Below are positions 3,825 through 23,316 of a stretch of 32,000 bases of DNA, one piece after another. The stretch is taken from assembly GCF_001545095.1 (NCBI RefSeq), contig NZ_CP013213.1:1410001-1442000 (forward strand). The letters run 5' to 3'. Under the pieces are notes generated by a model. That model ran no database searches, was not told where the DNA came from, and saw only the letters and a list, made by a program, of their open reading frames with translations. Every line of letters starts with the position of its first letter. Positions within the stretch are counted from its first letter, which is position 1. The position numbers were made by a program, and so were the translations under genes. Origin of the DNA: Erysipelothrix larvae (GTDB taxonomy: Bacteria > Bacillota_I > Bacilli_A > Erysipelotrichales > Erysipelotrichaceae).

Positions 3825-4103
3825 TTACTTTACTTTTACGCCTGTTTCCTCAACAAATTGCTTCCATTGTTTTTTTATCAGCGCTTTGTGTTGTGTGTCT
3901 GATAGATTTTCTGAGACATCATAACCCTCTTCTTCGAGATAATAGGCGAAGCAATCTGCTTCATATTCGTTTCTTCTATGCATGGCTGGAAAGTGTTTAA
4001 TCAAGTAATAGTTGAAATCTAAGTCAAAGTCCATGCGGTCTTTATTTCCAACAAGGTAATCCAAAACGAATGAATACATATACTTACTGTTGCTTTTTGT
4101 CAT
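3825..4103 (-). CDS. Hypothetical 92-aa protein, reminiscent of small helical colicin-D-type/self-protective immunity proteins
   Basis: Isolated ORF between two ORF-poor gaps. Acidic/aromatic helical composition (DFDLDFNYYLIKHFPAM...EADCFAYYLEEEGYDVSENLSD). Weak SD (GGAAAG ~11 nt upstream). The family assignment is by eye only. Confidence 0.5.
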   Translation of the reverse strand: MTKSNSKYMYSFVLDYLVGNKDRMDFDLDFNYYLIKHFPAMHRRNEYEADCFAYYLEEEGYDVSENLSDTQHKALIKKQWKQFVEETGVKVK

Positions 4104-4320: not shown

Positions 4321-4356
4321 CGAAAATTCCCTCTGTGGAAACATATCCACAGAGGG
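4321..4356 (-). terminator. Terminator of the metal operon (hairpin plus U-tract on the minus strand)
   Basis: Perfect 11-bp stem CCCTCTGTGGA (4329-4339) / TCCACAGAGGG (4346-4356) with a 6-nt loop. The minus-strand RNA continues AAUUUUCGAU. It lies ~120 nt downstream of the HMA gene stop. Confidence 0.6.
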
Positions 4357-4478: not shown

Positions 4479-4712
4479 TTAAATATTTTTGACCTGGGAT
4501 TTTAATACTTCATAACCTAATTTGTCGATAACATGTTCAATGTCTTTTATAGATACTTTTTCATCGTCAAATTCCACCCTCACCTTGCTTGAATTAAATA
4601 GTACTTTTAAACTCTCTTTACTTACCCCGTCCAAAGATTTCACACCATTCTCTATTTTTTGCATACAAGACGGACATGTTAATGTTTCTAATTGAATCGT
4701 TGCTTTTTGCAT
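4479..4712 (-). CDS. Heavy-metal-associated (HMA) domain metallochaperone, CopZ-like
   Basis: 77 aa. Metal-binding CxxC (LTCPSCMQKIE) at the usual position of the ferredoxin-like HMA fold. SD AAAGGAGAG upstream of the ATG. Confidence 0.85.
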   Translation of the reverse strand: MQKATIQLETLTCPSCMQKIENGVKSLDGVSKESLKVLFNSSKVRVEFDDEKVSIKDIEHVIDKLGYEVLKSQVKNI

Positions 4713-4743
4713 TTTCTTCTCTCCTTTAGTTTATATCGATTTT

Positions 4744-4785
4744 ATTATACTCGATTATTATCATCATTAAATTGATTTGCATCAA
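4744..4785 (-). promoter_or_regulatory. FNR-type box TTGAT-TTGC-ATCAA plus TATAAT -10 (predicted class II promoter of the HMA gene)
   Basis: Perfect 5-4-5 core at 4772-4785 (centre 4778.5). Minus-strand TATAAT at 4749-4744. With a start 7 nt past the hexamer, the box centre is at -41.5. Confidence 0.65.
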
Positions 4786-4807
4786 CAGCTTAATTTGTTG
4801 TTTATTT

Positions 4808-6655
4808 TCATAGTTTGTAGCGTAGCAACCTCATGCCATTTAAAATGACCACTAATATGCTTGCTTCGTGTACTAACATTCCGATTGACATGTTCATCCA
4901 TTCACTAAAGAATACGCTGGCAAGAAGGACTAATACAACCCCTACTGCAATAATAATATTTTGAAGCATGTTATTAGCGGTTGCTTTTGTTAAACCTAAT
5001 GCATGTGGCAAGCGGCTGAAATCTGAATTCATTAAAACAACATCTGAAGTTTCGATTGCTACATCTGTTCCATTTCCCATAGCAATTCCAATTTGTGCTA
5101 GAGCTAGTGAAGGACTATCATTTACTCCATCTCCAACAAATGCCACAATTTGACCTTTTTCTTGTAACTCTTTAATATATGTTGCTTTATCTTCTGGCAA
5201 CATATGTCCATGAGCTTCTGTAAGTCCTAGTTCACGTGCTACTAAATCAACTGTTCCTTGGTTATCACCAGAAAGAACTACTAGATTTTTAACACCAAGT
5301 TTTTTCAACTTTTTAAGATCATCTTTTACACCCGGGCGAATTTGATCACGAATACCCATCAATGCTTTTAATTCACCATCAACTGATGTTAAAACAAGTG
5401 AGTTTCCATTTTTCTCAAATCTGGCAATATCTGCACGAGCTTTTTCACTTAAAAGAATATTTTCTTGCTCCATTAGTGCCACATTACCGACTGCAACTTT
5501 ATGACCTTCTACATGAGCTACAATTCCTCCACCTTTTACAACATCTGTTTTTTCAATTGTATATAATTTTATATCTCCAATATATTCTACAACTGCTTTT
5601 GCTAATGGATGATCTGATTCCTTTTCAACACTTGCTAGATACCCTAATACTTCATATTCATTATCTGCATAAATTTCTTTATCAGCTACTTTGGGATTTC
5701 CTATTGTTAATGTACCTGTTTTGTCAAATACCATGGTATCTAGTCTGCTAAAGTCACTAATAACCTCGCTACCTTTTAGAAGTACTCCATGACGTGCTCC
5801 ATTGCCAATCCCCGCGACGTTTGAAACTGGTACACCGATTACCAATGCTCCTGGACATCCTAAAACTAATATTGTAATTGCAAGTTCAATATCCCTTGAA
5901 AATATCCATACAATAAAAGAGAGAACTAAAACAGCTGGTGTGTAGTATTTAGAAAATCTATCAATGAAACGTTCTGCTTCTGATTTTGAATCCTGTGCTT
6001 CTTCAACCAACTCAATGATTTTACCAAAAGTAGTATCCTCACCTACACGATCAGCAGTGATTTGAATAGTTCCATTTTCTAAAATTGTTCCGGCATATAC
6101 CCCCGAATCTTTCTTTTTACTTACAGGAACCGCTTCTCCTGTAATACTTGCTTCATTAATATACCCTTCTCCTGTTAACACTGTACCGTCAACTGGGATT
6201 TTTGCACCCGTTTTAACAAGCAAAATATCTCCTACATCAACTTCATCTATTTCTACTTCTTCAAACTCACCATTTTTCAGTTGCTTTAGAGCAACTTCAG
6301 GCGCCATTTCAGTTAATTCTTTTATTGCAGAACGTGTTTTATTCAGTGTTCTTTGTTCTAGATAAGCTCCAAATAGAAATAAAAAGGTAACAATTGCTGA
6401 CTCCTCATAATTTCTAATTAGAAACGCGCCAATGACTGCAATGGTCACTAACACATCAATACTGACTACTTTAACTCTGAGTGCTTGATACGCTTGGATG
6501 GCAATCGGTATAACTCCTAAAACAGAGGCAATTATTAGTGACCATATGGCTATAGGTTCGTTTTGAAATCCTAATTTACTAACATATGCAATTATTATTA
6601 AAATTGCACTTACTATTGTAATATGATTCTTTCTTCCTAAAATTAATTTTTGCAT
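4808..6655 (-). CDS. P1B-type heavy-metal translocating ATPase without an N-terminal metal-binding domain
   Basis: TGE (SITGEAVPV), DKTGTLT and GDGVNDSPSLA motifs. Four predicted TM helices lie before the actuator domain and four after. TM6 has CPG (5849-5857) and the last TM has HEAS (4865-4870). Start set at ATG 6655 (GGAAGGAG 7 nt upstream); the track start is 6697. Confidence 0.9.
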   Translation of the reverse strand: MQKLILGRKNHITIVSAILIIIAYVSKLGFQNEPIAIWSLIIASVLGVIPIAIQAYQALRVKVVSIDVLVTIAVIGAFLIRNYEESAIVTFLFLFGAYLEQRTLNKTRSAIKELTEMAPEVALKQLKNGEFEEVEIDEVDVGDILLVKTGAKIPVDGTVLTGEGYINEASITGEAVPVSKKKDSGVYAGTILENGTIQITADRVGEDTTFGKIIELVEEAQDSKSEAERFIDRFSKYYTPAVLVLSFIVWIFSRDIELAITILVLGCPGALVIGVPVSNVAGIGNGARHGVLLKGSEVISDFSRLDTMVFDKTGTLTIGNPKVADKEIYADNEYEVLGYLASVEKESDHPLAKAVVEYIGDIKLYTIEKTDVVKGGGIVAHVEGHKVAVGNVALMEQENILLSEKARADIARFEKNGNSLVLTSVDGELKALMGIRDQIRPGVKDDLKKLKKLGVKNLVVLSGDNQGTVDLVARELGLTEAHGHMLPEDKATYIKELQEKGQIVAFVGDGVNDSPSLALAQIGIAMGNGTDVAIETSDVVLMNSDFSRLPHALGLTKATANNMLQNIIIAVGVVLVLLASVFFSEWMNMSIGMLVHEASILVVILNGMRLLRYKL

Positions 6656-6706
6656 ATTCATACTCCTTCCTATTATGATTTTTATTAATTGTATCACTTG
6701 TTTCTT

Positions 6707-7009
6707 TTATGATTCATATGCTTTATCTAATTCTGCCAACAGGTTATATACTGCTTCATAGCTTTCACAAACATCCTCTGGAACTGTATAATTGTCTGTA
6801 ATTTTACGTAACTTTACAAATTCATCTACTAAGTCAGGTTTTCCCCTTCCTGTATCTTTTAATTTTTTTGCAAGCTTATCATATACTTCACGAACTTGGT
6901 GAAATTCTGGATGATTGCCGCCATGAACTCGTGCTACAACTGGTACATACTGTGCTAATGTTTTTAAATGTGTTTCCTTAACTTGATTAAAATCTAATTT
7001 TTTTGACAT
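6707..7009 (-). CDS. Small RIC/YtfE-like (hemerythrin-fold-like) protein
   Basis: 100 aa. VVARVHGGNHPEF resembles YtfE KVERVHADKP, and NYTVPEDVCESYEAVYNLLAELD resembles YtfE [23 protein letters not shown] (recalled sequence). It lacks the central HxxxE/EEQILFP-type motifs. First gene of the ATPase operon. Confidence 0.55.
   Translation of the reverse strand: MSKKLDFNQVKETHLKTLAQYVPVVARVHGGNHPEFHQVREVYDKLAKKLKDTGRGKPDLVDEFVKLRKITDNYTVPEDVCESYEAVYNLLAELDKAYES
6980..6999. promoter_or_regulatory. Imperfect third FNR-type box inside the 5' end of the RIC-like gene
   Basis: AACTTGAT-TAAA-ATCTAATT matches the 8-4-8 site at 7073-7092: left arm 8/8, right arm 6/8. The two centres are 93 bp apart. 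Confidence 0.35.
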
Positions 7010-7047
7010 GTTTTTTTCCTTCTTTCTTTTTTCTTTGGGTTGATTAC

Positions 7048-7092
7048 ATTATATAAGGGATTAAAAGATATTAACTTGATCTACATCAAGTT
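7048..7092 (-). promoter_or_regulatory. FNR-type box AACTTGAT-CTAC-ATCAAGTT plus TATAAT -10 (predicted class II promoter of the RIC-like/ATPase operon)
   Basis: Perfect 8-4-8 palindrome at 7073-7092 (core TTGAT-N4-ATCAA 7076-7089, centre 7082.5). Minus-strand TATAAT at 7053-7048 places the centre at -41.5 of the predicted start (~7041). SD GAAGGA lies upstream of ATG 7009. Confidence 0.7.
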
Positions 7093-7107
7093 TGTTCTTT
7101 TTACGCA

Positions 7108-7158
7108 GAAAAATAGAACAGTTGGTATTTTTAAATTAATGCCAACTGTTCTATTTTT
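7108..7158 (-). terminator. Strong bidirectional rho-independent terminator after the FNR-like gene
   Basis: Stem AAAAATAGAACAGTTGG (7108-7124) / CCAACTGTTCTATTTTT (7142-7158) is perfectly complementary (17 bp). T-runs flank it on both strands. It lies 18 nt downstream of the stop at 7176. Confidence 0.8.
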
Positions 7159-7175
7159 TATTTTAAGATTATCTG

Positions 7176-7925
7176 CTATATCAGCAACAAACCATCTAAA
7201 TCTAAAATCTCAATCTTTCTGTTTCTTTTTTGCTTTATATAACCTGCCTCTTCAAAATCAGCAAACTTTCTACTTATCGTTTCAGGTGTAGTTCCTAAGT
7301 AAGAGGCTAAATCCTTTCTATTCATTGGCAATTCAATTTCCATTGAACCCTCATCACCATCCAAGCATTCTGCAAGAAACAGCGCTATTCTAGAATCCAC
7401 CTTCTCTGTGGCAAATCTGGTTGTTTGTTTTTCTGATGTTTCCAATCGGTTAGAAAACTCTGATAAGAACTTCAAGGATATCGTAGGGTACTTTAATAAA
7501 AATTCTTGTAAATCATTTTTACTAATCATACACACATCAGTATCACTCATTGCTTCTGCATACGCTTCATGGATTGATTCACGAAACAAAGCAAGTTCTC
7601 CAGTAAAATCTCCTGGATTTAAAATTCTCAATAATTGTTCTTTTCCAGACTCAGATAAACGGTAGATTCTAATTTTACCCTTACTTACAACATATAAGGC
7701 ATTGGATGTATCTCCCTCCCGATAAACCACTTCACCCTTTTTATATGAAATTGACCTCATTACTTTCATAATTTCATCCATCTGTTCTTCTTCTAAATGA
7801 TTAAAGATTGGAACAACACTGATACATGAAGTCTGTGAATCTGAGTTATCTCTGCGATGATGAGTGTGAGAGGAAGTATTACACCCATTCTTTCTTTTGT
7901 CTTGTATAGAATCCTTTTTTGGCAT
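7176..7925 (-). CDS. Crp/Fnr-family transcriptional regulator (FNR-like) with Cys/His-rich N-terminal extension
   Basis: cNMP-binding-type beta-barrel region followed by a C-terminal HTH MNRKDLASYLGTTPETISRKF carrying the FNR E--SR motif (E215, S218, R219). The N-terminus is GC15NTSSH20TH22H23...SC34ISVVPIF, and Cys132 lies in DTDVCMISKNDL. The start ATG abuts the upstream stop (TAAATG). Confidence 0.9.
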   Translation of the reverse strand: MPKKDSIQDKRKNGCNTSSHTHHRRDNSDSQTSCISVVPIFNHLEEEQMDEIMKVMRSISYKKGEVVYREGDTSNALYVVSKGKIRIYRLSESGKEQLLRILNPGDFTGELALFRESIHEAYAEAMSDTDVCMISKNDLQEFLLKYPTISLKFLSEFSNRLETSEKQTTRFATEKVDSRIALFLAECLDGDEGSMEIELPMNRKDLASYLGTTPETISRKFADFEEAGYIKQKRNRKIEILDLDGLLLI

Positions 7926-8165
7926 TTAGATACCCCTTTCATACCTTATTGTGAACTTGTTTATCTTTTCAAAATATTCATGAATCCAGTAAATGCAAGT
8001 AGATTCATACGGAATTGTAATTGGGTTATCGCCATAGCCTAGACTTTCCATAGAATTTTTTAGACGACCTATTTCTTGCTTAAGTCCTCGGATGGCGGTC
8101 ATTATTTCTTCTTTTGTTTTTCCTTTGAGATACTCTTCATAGTGACTTTCCGGACTAATCATCAT
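7926..8165 (-). CDS. Hypothetical 79-aa protein, co-transcribed between the XRE gene and the FNR-like gene
   Basis: AGGAGG 9 nt upstream of the ATG. The stop is directly adjacent to the FNR-like start. No recognisable motif. Confidence 0.6.
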   Translation of the reverse strand: MMISPESHYEEYLKGKTKEEIMTAIRGLKQEIGRLKNSMESLGYGDNPITIPYESTCIYWIHEYFEKINKFTIRYERGI

Positions 8166-8180
8166 ATTAGACTGCCTCCT

Positions 8181-8405
8181 TTATTCGTTAGATATTTTTA
8201 TTTCATCTCCATCTGGTAAAATAAATGCCTGCACAAACTTGACACCTAGCACATCAGCAATGGCCTTCAACTCATCCAAGGTTACCGTTTCACGTTGTAA
8301 TTTCTTATTGAAATTTTGTGGAGTCTGGCCGATACGTCTGGCAAGTTCAGAAACGCTTATATTCATTTGCTCACACAGTTCTTTAATCATTTCTGCCGTA
8401 GTCAT
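8181..8405 (-). CDS. XRE-family helix-turn-helix DNA-binding protein (74 aa)
   Basis: HTH ISVSELARRIGQTPQNFNKKLQR. GGAGG SD upstream. This small HTH type is common on Firmicute mobile elements. Confidence 0.8.
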   Translation of the reverse strand: MTTAEMIKELCEQMNISVSELARRIGQTPQNFNKKLQRETVTLDELKAIADVLGVKFVQAFILPDGDEIKISNE

Positions 8406-10111: not shown

Positions 10112-10528
10112 TTATTCCTCGCTTTCTATCAGACTGTATAAGTATTCTGCTCGTTCAAAAGGATCCACGGGCATCTTATTATCTGCCTTTTTCATTTTGA
10201 ATCGTTCTTTGGGAGGGGGAGAGGTAAAAGCGGCAAGCTCTACCACTCGTCCTAAATCCTTTGCACGTTTATCTCTAACTTCTTCAGCTTTATCAAATAT
10301 CTCTTTATCAATAATTGCTGGATACGTATCATTTCCAAGGTAGTTGACGTTTTTCAAAATACGTCCCATTACTGAGTGTGTCTTATCAATACCTGCCTGT
10401 TCGCCAGCCACTGTAAGGGATAGTCCTGATATGTATTTCTCAAAGAATACCTTTACTTGACCTGCTGCCTTTTCATCGACAGTAACCACTCCGTCTTGAA
10501 TTTTGTATCCATATGGAATATATGCCAT
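10112..10528 (-). CDS. Recombinase-domain-only protein (no catalytic resolvase domain, no Zn ribbon)
   Basis: 138 aa beginning [35 protein letters not shown]...[10 protein letters not shown]...[12 protein letters not shown]. This is the pattern that follows the catalytic domain in large serine recombinases. The ATG is immediately adjacent to the upstream TAA. Confidence 0.7.
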
Positions 10529-20996: not shown

Positions 20997-21109
20997 TGTA
21001 TTTGTTAATCTAAAAGTGGGCCAATTCTCAATTGAAAACTGGTCCACTATTTTTATAACTTCAGAAGTGTGTGATAATGCTTTTGGAGGTGAAAGAGGTG
21101 ATATCACAA

Positions 21110-22558
21110 ATGAGCAAATATTCAATTATCACATTAAAAAAGAAAGGATGGTCCAACAGAAAGATTGCCCTTGAATTGGGTATAGACCGAAAGACGGTCG
21201 CACGGTATCTTCAGGAATATAATAAATGTCAAATACAATTGATTGATAATCATGATTTATCAGACGAAAGAAAAGTAGAAGTCATTGATCAAATTGTTGG
21301 GGACCGTCACTATGATGCAAGCAAACGAGGTAAGCGCAAGTTAACGCAAGAAATTCAAGCACGCATCATTGAAATTATGGATTCAGAAAAAGATAAAGAT
21401 ATGTTACTAGGAAGACATCATAAGCAAAAGTTAACAGTCACTCAAATTTTTGAAATTATCAAAAGCGAGGGACATGATATTGGTCAGACAACCATACGAA
21501 ATTTTGTGCATGAAATTCAAGCTTCACGAGAAACATTTATTCGACAAGATTATCGATATGGTGAGCGGTTAGAGTTTGACTTTGGAGAAGTAAAGCTTTT
21601 AATTAATGGTGAACCAAGAACATATTATCTCGCTGTTTTCTCATCACCAGCAAGCGGATATCGGTATGCATATTTATATCCAAACCAACGCAAACAAGTA
21701 TTCATAGATGCACATGTTCGCTTCTTTGAGCATTCTAAAGGCTCTTGGGGTGAAGTTGTATATGACAATATGAGAAACGTCGTGAAGCGCTTTATAACGC
21801 CTTATGAAAAAGAAATTAATGATGATTGCCTCAAACTGGCACTCTATTATAATTTTGAAATTAACCTGACTAATATACGAAGTGGTCATGAAAAAGGAAG
21901 TGTAGAAAACAGTGTTAAGGTAATTCGAAATCGTGTATTCGCAAAGGACTATAAGTTTGAAACATTTGAAGAGGCATGTGTTCATCTTGAACAGACTCTT
22001 GATGAAATCAATATAAAGAGTTCAATCGAAGATGAAAAGAAAGAACTTCAACCTTACAGAATTCCTTATGAATTCGCTGATATCGAAGTATATAGTGTTG
22101 ACAAGTATGGTTGTATACACGTTGAAAATAATTTTTATTCAGTCCCAGACTATCTCCAACACAAAAGAGTTACGGTCAAAAACACCGTAAATTCGATACG
22201 CATCTATTCAAATCACACATTTGTGTACGAACATAAAAAGATAGATGGTCATCATCAATATCAGCTTGTGTTGGACCACTATCTGAATACAATGATGACT
22301 AAGCCGGGATCTGTAAAGAATTCACTTGTCCTAAAACAACATCCTGAGCTTTATAACATCTACCATAATCATTATAAAACAAGAACTAAAGAGTTCATAG
22401 AAATTCTTCAAGAAAACAGGAATGAAACGTATAAAACGCTCAAAGATGCTTTAAAGTATCGGTTGGTTTCAAATACAATTGACACCGTTGAGTATGATGA
22501 CAGCATACAAGAACAATCACGTAAACAACTTAAGAAAATAAGCCAATTAATGCACTAG
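21110..22558 (+). CDS. istA: IS21-family transposase IstA
   Basis: N-terminal HTH (GWSNRKIALELGIDRKTVARYLQEY) followed by a DDE-type core. It sits upstream of an IstB-like gene. Start set at ATG 21110 (AGAGGTG 9 nt upstream). Confidence 0.9.
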   Translation: MSKYSIITLKKKGWSNRKIALELGIDRKTVARYLQEYNKCQIQLIDNHDLSDERKVEVIDQIVGDRHYDASKRGKRKLTQEIQARIIEIMDSEKDKDMLLGRHHKQKLTVTQIFEIIKSEGHDIGQTTIRNFVHEIQASRETFIRQDYRYGERLEFDFGEVKLLINGEPRTYYLAVFSSPASGYRYAYLYPNQRKQVFIDAHVRFFEHSKGSWGEVVYDNMRNVVKRFITPYEKEINDDCLKLALYYNFEINLTNIRSGHEKGSVENSVKVIRNRVFAKDYKFETFEEACVHLEQTLDEINIKSSIEDEKKELQPYRIPYEFADIEVYSVDKYGCIHVENNFYSVPDYLQHKRVTVKNTVNSIRIYSNHTFVYEHKKIDGHHQYQLVLDHYLNTMMTKPGSVKNSLVLKQHPELYNIYHNHYKTRTKEFIEILQENRNETYKTLKDALKYRLVSNTIDTVEYDDSIQEQSRKQLKKISQLMH

Positions 22559-22569
22559 GAGATAAATTA

Positions 22570-23316
22570 ATGGAAACAATTGAACAATTGTCAAAAGAAT
22601 TAAAACTTTCATTCATAAAAACACACTATGAAGCAGCAATACAGGAAGCGAAACACAAAGGATTGGATTTTCAAGAATTTCTTAACGAACTGCTTTATTG
22701 CGAACGAAACAATCGTCGTGACAACGGAATAAAACAACGCATTCGTGCTGCTCGATTTCCTCAAAACAAGACATTGGAGGATTTTACGACTGTAAAATTT
22801 AATTCAGAATTAAAACGAAAGTTTAAAGAACTGGAAACATTGAACTTTATAGAAAATAAAGAAAACATTATCTTAATGAGTAATCCTGGAATGGGAAAAA
22901 CACATTATGCGACCGCACTTGGAATCAAAGCTTGTCTAGAAAATAAAAAAGTGCTATTTATCAGCGTTCCTAATCTAATTATAGAGTTAAAAGAAGCTAT
23001 GTCAAAAAATCAAATTACGCAATACAAAAAGAAGTTTGAAAAATTTGATCTAGTAATTCTTGATGAACTCGGCTATGTATCATTTGATAAAGAAGGAAGT
23101 GAAATTCTATTCAATCTAATCTCAAATAGAATAACAGTGGGCTCTATGATTATTACAACAAATTTAATGTTCGATAGATGGGAAGAAATATTCAAAGACC
23201 CCATTCTAACAACTGCTCTAGTCGACCGCTTAACCTATAAATCACATCTATTAAATATGAGTGGAGAGAGTTATCGTGTTGAAGAAACAATTGCTTGGCT
23301 AAAGAGCAAAGAATGA
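22570..23316 (+). CDS. istB: IS21-family ATP-binding helper IstB
   Basis: Walker A NPGMGKTH, Walker B LVILDELGY, 248 aa. It starts 11 nt after istA, with a GGAG SD. Confidence 0.92.
   Translation: METIEQLSKELKLSFIKTHYEAAIQEAKHKGLDFQEFLNELLYCERNNRRDNGIKQRIRAARFPQNKTLEDFTTVKFNSELKRKFKELETLNFIENKENIILMSNPGMGKTHYATALGIKACLENKKVLFISVPNLIIELKEAMSKNQITQYKKKFEKFDLVILDELGYVSFDKEGSEILFNLISNRITVGSMIITTNLMFDRWEEIFKDPILTTALVDRLTYKSHLLNMSGESYRVEETIAWLKSKE

Follow-up and report, generated by a model that had tools for sequence, protein, structure and literature searches.

A Flp-type regulator, two FNR boxes and a CPG-type P1B ATPase form a candidate regulon beside a prophage-like element in Erysipelothrix larvae

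Background

[quoted passage not shown] The Flp proteins have been known as members of this family since the late 1990s, and to our knowledge neither their regulon nor their signal has ever been settled. The orfX-orfY-flp operons described by Gostick et al. 1999 and Scott et al. 2000 reportedly carry FNR sites, and the preferred site of the Lacticaseibacillus casei protein FLP is said to differ from the FNR site. Here we describe a locus of this kind in the genome of Erysipelothrix larvae, where a gene for a Crp/Fnr regulator lies next to genes for a RIC-like protein, a P1B-type ATPase and a free-standing HMA protein. The stretch analysed comprises 32,000 nucleotides (nt) of contig NZ_CP013213.1 (RefSeq assembly GCF_001545095.1, forward-strand positions 1,410,001 to 1,442,000); it is called the window below, and all positions without further specification count from its first letter.

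In the literature on Flp proteins, FlpAB is connected with metal homeostasis and with oxidative stress (PMC4829306), an intramolecular disulfide is described as conferring promoter binding on oxidised Flp, a flpA flpB double mutant is described as hypersensitive to H2O2, the target genes of L. casei FLP are said to remain unclear (all PMC7162690), and FlpA is suggested to hold an O2-labile cluster by means of non-cysteinyl N-terminal residues (PMC5039431). For P1B ATPases, the pump PfeT of Bacillus subtilis is derepressed by H2O2 via PerR and induced by iron via Fur, according to one report (PMC9993123). Our literature searches on FNR-family control of heavy-metal ATPases returned nothing specific.

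Results

A preliminary description of the window, made from the sequence letters, had pointed out two perfect FNR boxes, each at the same distance from a TATAAT hexamer, an adjacent regulator with the E--SR helix, a strong terminator between the transcript of this regulator and the target operon, and target genes for a RIC-like protein, a P1B ATPase and an HMA protein. All of these features were recovered, the boxes with their coordinates and spacing by direct reading, the gene content by reading of the open reading frames (ORFs) and by domain searches, and the helix by alignment with a solved FNR; the terminator is treated together with the regulator transcript below. The features on which the argument rests are the following (aa, amino acids):

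7073-7092, core 7076-7089 (TTGAT-CTAC-ATCAA, plus strand), centre 7082.5: box 1, AACTTGAT-CTAC-ATCAAGTT, read directly from the sequence
7053-7048, minus strand (plus-strand ATTATA at 7048-7053): TATAAT, putative -10 of the RIC-like-ATPase operon promoter, read directly
4772-4785, centre 4778.5: box 2, TTGAT-TTGC-ATCAA, a perfect core, read directly from the sequence
4749-4744, minus strand (plus-strand ATTATA at 4744-4749): TATAAT, putative -10 of a separate HMA promoter, read directly
7925-7176, minus strand: Flp-type Crp/Fnr regulator, 249 aa (Pfam cNMP_binding 7.6e-26, HTH_Crp_2 7e-20, Crp 3.4e-07)
7009-6707, minus strand: RIC-like protein with four predicted helices, 100 aa, first gene of the operon (sub-threshold NCBIfam RIC matches)
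6697 (GTG) or 6655 (ATG) to 4808, minus strand: P1B-type ATPase (Pfam E1-E2_ATPase and Hydrolase)
4712-4479, minus strand: stand-alone HMA metallochaperone-like protein, 77 aa, with a CPSC motif (Pfam HMA 6.9e-13)

In its extended form, box 1 is a 20-nt palindrome, AACTTGATCTACATCAAGTT (7073-7092); box 2 sits inside the 95-nt gap between the stop codon of the ATPase gene and the start codon of the HMA gene. At both promoters exactly 22 nt separate the end of the box from TATAAT. Counted upstream from the -10, whose first base is the reference, the box centre lies at a distance of 29.5 nt, and hence at -41.5 if the hexamer occupies positions -12 to -7. The hexamer located 17 nt upstream of the TATAAT at 7053-7048 is AGTTAA and matches TTGACA at one of six positions, and the one upstream of the TATAAT at 4749-4744 is ATTTAA and matches at two of six. 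A generic sigma-70 scan calls neither window promoter, that of the RIC-like-ATPase operon because there is no -35. Relative to the -10, the spacing at both putative promoters fits a predicted class II geometry.

Perfect TTGAT-N4-ATCAA sites occur twice in the 32 kb against 0.11 expected, and none of 100 dinucleotide-preserving shuffles contained two or more. The preliminary description had given an expectation of 0.03, which assumes equal base frequencies and is about four times too low, and its conclusion that such sites are rare holds nevertheless. When one mismatch is allowed, five boxes are found in the window against 3.3 expected, which is not significant, so that only the perfect pair carries weight, and the one-mismatch boxes were rejected as additional sites. 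This count, which is at chance level, is what could be put forward for the view that the two palindromes arose by chance in AT-rich intergenic DNA and have no regulatory role. Against it, there are two perfect sites and not one, both lie at the identical distance from a perfect TATAAT, and the arrangement recurs in dozens of divergent species (see below); because of this conservation across loci we regard the chance explanation as effectively refuted. One of the one-mismatch boxes, TTGATTAAAATCTA at 6983-6996, falls at the very beginning of the RIC-like coding region, within its first codons. The loci closest to the window (L006-L009) have it too, and it is probably conserved as coding sequence; it could also be a weak second site.

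The regulator shows the two-domain architecture of the Crp/Fnr family, with a cNMP-binding-like sensor domain and a C-terminal helix-turn-helix (HTH) domain (Pfam). Its best full-length solved relative is the FNR protein of Aliivibrio fischeri (PDB 5cvr). In this alignment the recognition helix TPETISRKF (E215, S218, R219) corresponds to TVETISRLL, and SESGKEQ corresponds to TEQGDEQ, the loop of FNR activating region 3, with SGKEQL aligned to FNR 84-89; C34 and C132 are the equivalents of C29 and C122 of Escherichia coli FNR, and R24 and N27 are found at the positions of C20 and C23. Since only the C29 and C122 equivalents are present, a canonical four-Cys [4Fe-4S] cluster cannot form. An assignment as FNR proper was rejected, with two of the four cluster cysteines missing and a score of 87 bits with the NCBIfam Fnr model NF008365, far below its cutoff of 228. 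When 18 members of the family are aligned, C34, C132, SGKEQL and GTTPET-SR are invariant; C34 and C132 are the only invariant cysteines, and the window regulator has an extra, non-conserved C15. The segment in front of C34 consists of 20% histidine as compared to 1.4% in the rest of the protein, and across the family the approximately 24 residues preceding the invariant cysteine contain a median of five histidines and zero to four extra cysteines. Judged from these sequences, the regulator has the two cysteines typical of Flp and, in addition, a His-rich tract; it is a new member of the Flp kind and arguably stands for a subfamily.

The regulator family is large (2094 database clusters at E <= 1e-10), and 417 stretches encoding a relative were found in a scan of species-representative genomes; the best 80 of these 417 stretches were used for the comparison of loci. 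In 50 of the 80 loci a gene for the same unusual type of P1B ATPase lies within 7 kb of the regulator gene, and the genes follow one of two orders. Architecture A comprises 24 loci (Lactobacillales, Clostridia and others), whose regulators share 68-98% identity with that of the window. It shows in most cases the order regulator, RIC-like, ATPase, HMA, which is the order in the window, and the module is often preceded by genes for a serine recombinase, an XRE protein and the 79-aa ORF (orf79) described below; at two loci (L030 and L059) the ATPase gene is found downstream of the regulator gene without a RIC-like gene. Architecture B has the order HMA, ATPase, regulator and comprises 26 loci with regulators 63-71% identical to that of the window, mostly from Bacillaceae, together with several from metagenome-assembled genomes (MAGs) of the class Clostridia and of other Bacillota. 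In these 26 loci the regulator gene is the last gene of the regulated operon, which it is not in the window.

A box with up to two mismatches, followed by a -10 after 22 nt, was found at 22 of 22 RIC-like promoters, 21 of 26 HMA promoters of architecture B and 14 of 21 HMA promoters of architecture A. The box lies 65-98 nt upstream of the start codon of the RIC-like gene in all 22 of these architecture-A loci. At the HMA genes of either architecture it is located 64.5-71.5 nt upstream of the start codon (with its centre mostly at 65-68 nt), a few outliers aside. We also counted, for all boxes with at most one mismatch in the fetched loci, the distance to a hexamer matching TATAAT at five or more of six positions: a spacer of 22 nt was seen for 92 box orientations, and other spacers for 1-12 each, except for 28 at a spacer of 27 nt. 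Many of the promoters that share the layout of box, 22 nt and -10 are otherwise unrelated in sequence.

Conservation of the boxes at orthologous loci, on which the preliminary description had made its proposal depend, is thus evident both at the RIC-like promoters and in the peak at spacer 22. Together with the linkage of regulator and ATPase genes it makes the adjacent regulator, or its family, very likely the cognate one, as had been proposed. The term self-contained, which had been applied to this regulon, was too strong, as the boxes also front other genes in relatives and as the trio of RIC-like protein, CPG pump (see below) and HMA protein is boxed in Paenibacillus and in a further genome of the Bacillota, both without an adjacent regulator gene. 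Such orphan trios, and the fact that TTGAT-N4-ATCAA is a generic site of the FNR class, would be expected if the boxes served a different Crp/Fnr regulator encoded by the host, such as a true FNR or ArcR, and the adjacent one had its targets elsewhere. We consider this very improbable: the regulator gene adjoins boxed targets in 50 of the 80 loci, in either gene order, and does so on plasmids from several genera as well; a module that moves together with its regulator would have no need of a host factor, and the E--SR helix fits the site.

The sigma-70 scan found an alternative weak promoter, TTGATG-17-GATAAT (4785..4757), which overlaps box 2. The boxes might therefore be operators, with the regulator repressing by occlusion of overlapping promoters. 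However, the feature that is conserved is a -10 exactly 22 nt past the box without a -35, which is the geometry of an activator, the TTGATG-17-GATAAT promoter is not conserved in the Bacillaceae loci, and the loop corresponding to activating region 3 of FNR does not vary in the family; repression is thus an improbable mode of action.

Other genes found behind the same layout of box, 22 nt and -10 in regulator loci encode Dps, DUF6448, DUF438-hemerythrin, DUF1858 and cupin proteins, and the predicted theme shared by the co-regulated genes would be the handling of metals, combined with stress of the oxidative or nitrosative type. The DUF6448 promoters belong to Clostridia-type loci (L054, 4669; L059, 5972 and 10118-10172; L067, 5377; L050, 2156), and the encoded proteins consist of a signal peptide followed by HCDTMDGP, which provides an N-terminal His-Cys, and a His-rich C-terminus; DUF6448 looks like a secreted metal-binding protein of the same regulon. 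The RIC-like gene precedes the genes for the CPG ATPase and the HMA protein in architecture-A loci and in the three distant loci compared (L088, L089, L090), among them that of the archaeon Methanoculleus chikugoensis, where the trio has no boxes.

Among single loci, Vagococcus fluvialis (L003) encodes a regulator 98% identical to that of the window, and its HMA box is degenerate and located nearer to the gene. In Bavariicoccus seileri (L007) identity to the window reaches 100% for the RIC-like protein and 99% for the ATPase, as compared to only 87-94% in V. fluvialis; the module at 4479-7925 is a mosaic. Two Bacillaceae-like loci reside on contigs that were binned into MAGs of Sphingomonadaceae (L043, with the full set of HMA, ATPase and regulator genes) and Gaiellaceae (L063, with HMA and regulator genes only), probably by binning contamination or as a result of recent transfer.

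The 100-aa RIC-like protein has no match in Pfam, and with the NCBIfam model TIGR03652, whose cutoff is 204.7 bits, it reaches 50.6 bits, the match being confined to two short blocks. Its family comprises more than 1000 homologous clusters, nearly all of about 100 aa, and some source records name the homologues 'iron-sulfur cluster repair di-iron protein, ric'. We rejected an assignment to the RIC family in view of the far sub-threshold scores and the missing ScdA_N domain. Residues invariant in the family alignment include H29, H33, E35, C81 and E82. An AlphaFold model shows a four-helix bundle (pLDDT 79.6), whose best, though weak, matches in the PDB are ScdA/RIC (TMq 0.64-0.69) and YtfE. 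The sequence ends before what we take to be the last His/Glu ligand block of YtfE, and it presumably lacks the middle ligand helix.

For the ATPase, the ATG at 6655 is the more likely start and gives a protein of 615 aa; the ATPase scores 554.8 bits with TIGR01525. Pfam detects no N-terminal HMA domain in it, the ATPase-domain match beginning at residue 132. The pump has CPG in transmembrane helix (TM) 4 and HEAS...LNGMRLL in TM6. It matches the P1B-4 pump 7qbz in the PDB from end to end and CopA (3rfu) only in part; 7qbz likewise has no HMA domain, and it shows SPC and HEGS at the same positions. In the alignment of TM6, LVHEASILVVILNGMRLL of the window pump stands opposite LVHEGSTLVVVANALRLL of 7qbz, and in comparison with the HEGxT-type motif of P1B-4 pumps, His-Glu is kept, Gly is replaced by Ala (with Gly in some relatives) and Thr by Ile. 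All 59 Flp-linked pumps compared (that of the window and 58 related ones, including lactococcal, plasmid and archaeal pumps) have CPG, not CPC or SPC, in TM4 and HE[A/G]S...N..RL in TM6, and Flp-linked pumps in general are without an N-terminal HMA domain. P1B-4 as a firm assignment was rejected on account of CPG instead of SPC in these 59 pumps; the window pump is best described from its motifs as P1B-4-like yet putatively of a distinct subgroup, and more generally the CPG pumps with a separately encoded metal-binding domain appear to form a distinct, uncharacterised subgroup. For the free-standing HMA protein, CopZ-like NCBIfam models match below their cutoffs.

The transcript of the regulator and the ends of the module involve four further features:

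8181..8405, minus strand: XRE/Cro-type HTH gene (Pfam HTH_26 3.9e-14)
7926..8165, minus strand: 79-aa ORF, whose stop codon abuts the ATG of the regulator gene (TAAATG)
7109..7158, between the regulator stop codon and box 1: intrinsic terminator, potentially bidirectional (fold and scan)
4329..4356, both strands: terminator-like stem-loop at the module end, 3' of the HMA gene (11 pairs, 7 G-C)

The 79-aa ORF has no match in Pfam or NCBIfam and is conserved upstream of the regulator gene in many architecture-A loci. Because its stop codon and the regulator start codon meet in TAAATG, the two genes are probably co-transcribed and translationally coupled, and a single transcription unit of XRE gene, orf79 and regulator gene, headed by the XRE gene, is probable. 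Related loci, and phage Javan630 likewise, keep the XRE gene beside that of the serine recombinase. The regulator gene has no FNR box of its own in the window and is followed by the terminator, whose arms (7109-7129 and 7138-7158) are 21 nt long and 95% complementary; the minus-strand RNA folds with -22.4 kcal/mol (z = -6.8), and the plus-strand terminator scan matches as well, which fits the strong terminator of the preliminary description. Downstream of the module, a 92-aa ORF at 3825-4103 has no Pfam or NCBIfam match.

A search with a lactococcal plasmid regulator recovered the 'FNR like protein A' (FlpA) of Lactococcus cremoris, which is 35% identical to the window regulator over 221 residues (E 3e-46). 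The order of genes on the L. cremoris chromosome is ATPase (620 aa, no HMA domain, CPG), HMA (75 aa), a 179-aa ORF without Pfam or NCBIfam match, and flpA. The box of the ATPase gene, TTGACAGAAATCAA (3226), is found 65.5 nt upstream of the start codon, and TATACT begins after a spacer of 22 nt; that of the HMA gene, TTGATACAAATCAA (5157), is found 66.5 nt upstream, and TAAAAT comes after a spacer of the same length. The preliminary description had treated the lactococcal Flp proteins as only a loose precedent and control of this kind as undescribed, which does not agree with the ATPase and HMA genes and the identical box spacing at the flpA locus. Lactococcus thus already has Flp-type regulators that adjoin metal-transport genes with FNR-type sites, and the window locus is a further member of the Flp kind.

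The plasmid branch of the regulator (about 54% identity or less) is represented by 497 plasmid records, mostly from Enterococcus (246), Lactococcus (78), Leuconostoc and Listeria. Plasmids of Ligilactobacillus, Latilactobacillus and Listeria carry a cluster of Dps, Crp/Fnr, HMA and ATPase genes with perfect or one-mismatch boxes upstream, and on the Lactococcus lactis plasmid pNCDO2118 perfect boxes are located 69.5 nt (ATPase) and 68.5 nt (HMA) upstream. C34, C132, SGKEQL and GTTPET-SRK are invariant among the window regulator, the plasmid forms, FlpA and the relatives from Enterococcus and Lacticaseibacillus, and the two cysteines are likewise matched in the alignment of a 219-aa relative encoded by Lacticaseibacillus saniviri. 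On the Listeria plasmid pLmcIH1-6 (L083, 3600-9501) and on enterococcal plasmids the Flp, HMA and ATPase genes are found beside genes for Dps and the iron exporter gene fetB, a neighbourhood that hints at an iron-related role of the plasmid branch; the cluster is not discussed in a paper on the transcriptome of Listeria plasmids.

From 8548 to 32000 the window consists of a prophage; its identity to Streptococcus phage Javan630 and to Erysipelothrix phage phi1605 is about 96%. This part encodes two serine recombinases of about 520 aa each with a 138-aa ORF between them (annotated as 'recombinase' in Javan630), as well as a family A DNA polymerase, an Enc34-type ssDNA-binding protein, a DUF2800 nuclease, a GH25 lysin and tail proteins. 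When the segment 4400-8405 of the window was compared with Javan630 (L087, 42349-46580), the latter was found to carry genes for an aminoglycoside 6-adenylyltransferase and a spectinomycin adenylyltransferase at the site after the recombinase and XRE genes, and the phi1605 match includes tetM. The window has the Flp module where Javan630 has the resistance genes, just past the recombinase and XRE genes, and this position looks like an exchangeable cargo site. No record with the cassette was found in the phage collection, where the recombinase/XRE edge alone matches, the IMG/VR viral contigs contain no relative of the regulator, and a search for direct or inverted repeats delimiting the cassette gave none that was convincing. 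Within the prophage, two plus-strand ORFs at 21071-23316 interrupt the minus-strand block of tail genes, the first 495 aa long and carrying an HTH domain and a Mu-transposase C-terminal domain, the second of 248 aa; this segment looks like an inserted transposable element.

Discussion

We propose that the locus is a Flp-type regulon in which the adjacent regulator activates both promoters in a class II manner and senses its signal at a site composed of the two cysteines and the His-rich segment. We assign a probability of roughly 0.7 to this reading as a whole; our confidence is higher for the parts stating that the boxes are functional sites and that the regulator is cognate to them, and much lower for the nature of the signal. 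In the proposed mechanism, a dimer of the 249-aa regulator would bind both TTGAT-N4-ATCAA boxes through the E--SR helix. Each box would stand in for the -35, with the -10 located 22 nt downstream, and the dimer would recruit RNA polymerase. Activation would concern, on the one hand, the operon of the RIC-like protein and the P1B ATPase, a pump without a metal-binding domain of its own, and on the other hand the gene of the free-standing HMA protein. In the window the regulator would not be autoregulated; it would be made from the transcript of XRE gene, orf79 and regulator gene, which the terminator would insulate from the targets. C34 and C132, the equivalents of FNR C29 and C122, together with the His-rich N-terminus, would form the sensing site. 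As signal we favour, by analogy with what is reported for Flp, a thiol-based or oxidative switch in which the oxidised form binds DNA, so that stress of an oxidative or metal-linked kind would induce the pump, the chaperone and the RIC-like protein.

Several observations weigh against this proposal. The placement at -41.5 rests on an assumed transcription start 7 nt past the hexamer. The separate HMA promoter is not found throughout: several architecture-A loci have a degenerate HMA box or none, among them the locus that encodes the regulator with 98% identity. In addition, the weak promoter TTGATG-17-GATAAT in front of the HMA gene would make box 2 an operator. Finally, the His-rich N-terminus and the metal-handling targets fit direct sensing of a metal as well as they fit a thiol switch.

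The regulator might thus be a direct metal sensor, with the substrate of the pump (Fe2+, Zn2+, Co2+, Cd2+ or Ni2+) binding to the His-rich N-terminus and C34/C132. The metal would promote dimerisation and DNA binding, by analogy with the cluster-driven dimerisation of FNR, and the substrate would thereby induce its own pump and chaperone. Apart from the composition of the N-terminal segment in the window regulator and across the family, this possibility draws on the targets, i.e. a pump for metals, a protein resembling metallochaperones and a small protein in which certain His, Cys and Glu residues are invariant, on the secreted His-rich DUF6448 protein and Dps in the regulon of relatives, and on the position of the module at the recombinase end, where related phages carry resistance genes. 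However, the literature we searched contains no metal-sensing member of the Crp/Fnr family, the accessible part of a 2024 review of bacterial metal sensing does not mention Flp or FNR, and the reported biochemistry of Flp (PMC7162690) is that of a redox switch. Moreover, the N-terminus is short in the FlpA-like branch (median of six residues, with two histidines), which controls the same genes. We therefore regard direct metal sensing as the less likely of the two, though as a serious alternative, and a thiol switch remains the signal that we favour for the Flp-type regulon.

If the metal were sensed directly, the His-rich subfamily would represent the first Crp/Fnr factor to sense a transition metal by itself, through the His tract and the two leftover cysteines, with the metal driving dimerisation and class II activation of the trio of CPG pump, HMA protein and RIC-derived protein; this extension is speculative. 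It would mean that a metal-sensing regulator controls a previously unclassified P1B subgroup (CPG in TM4, HE[A/G]S in TM6) along with a detached HMA protein and a RIC-derived mini-protein, a three-gene unit whose conservation extends from Bacillota as far as a methanogenic archaeon. Irrespective of the signal, the combination of a Flp-type regulator, FNR boxes in class II spacing, a CPG P1B ATPase and a free HMA protein is a recurrent unit, which provides a concrete set of targets for a neglected regulator family, and the RIC-like small proteins constitute a family that current annotation mislabels as full iron-sulfur repair proteins. As the module occupies the site of antibiotic-resistance genes of phages, beside the recombinase end, it is suggested to be traded as an adaptive cassette for stress or metal tolerance. 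In the literature searched, we did not find the breadth of conservation combined with the strict geometry, the His-rich regulator subfamily, the subgroup of CPG pumps with a detached HMA protein, the RIC-derived mini-protein, or the siting beside a prophage-like element. In view of the lactococcal precedent, the accepted view of the regulation of P1B ATPases is not overturned.

Compared with FNR of E. coli and A. fischeri, the window regulator shares the fold, the E--SR helix, the TTGAT-N4-ATCAA site at the position of the -35, with a predicted centre near -41.5, and the loop of activating region 3; it differs in having only two of the cluster cysteine equivalents and in its predicted targets, which belong to metal handling and not to anaerobic respiration. 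L. casei FLP is comparable as a Gram-positive Crp/Fnr protein that likewise lacks the full set of FNR cysteines. The RIC-like protein has two sequence blocks of the hemerythrin-like domain in common with RIC, ScdA and YtfE, and its predicted fold matches ScdA/RIC best, whereas it is less than half as long and without the ScdA_N domain. The P1B-4 pumps for Fe(II) efflux, PfeT and PmtA (of streptococci), resemble the window pump in the absence of an N-terminal HMA domain and in being linked to a stress-responsive regulator, and the solved P1B-4 pump 7qbz shares with it the His-Glu of TM6. As differences, the 59 Flp-linked pumps have CPG and not SPC in TM4, the window module additionally contains a RIC-like protein and an HMA protein that is free and dedicated to it, and repressors of the Fur family contrast with the predicted Crp/Fnr activator of the window. 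The closest counterparts are the FlpA/FlpB loci of Lactococcus, with a homologous regulator, a CPG ATPase without an HMA domain and a separate, boxed HMA gene. In contrast to the window, where the regulator gene is located upstream, appears to be transcribed separately and is followed by a terminator, flpA is the last gene of its operon and presumably autoregulated; the flpA locus has no RIC-like first gene, the N-terminus of FlpA comprises about 22 residues or fewer as compared to about 33, rich in histidine, in the window regulator, and only the window module adjoins the recombinase end of a prophage-like element.

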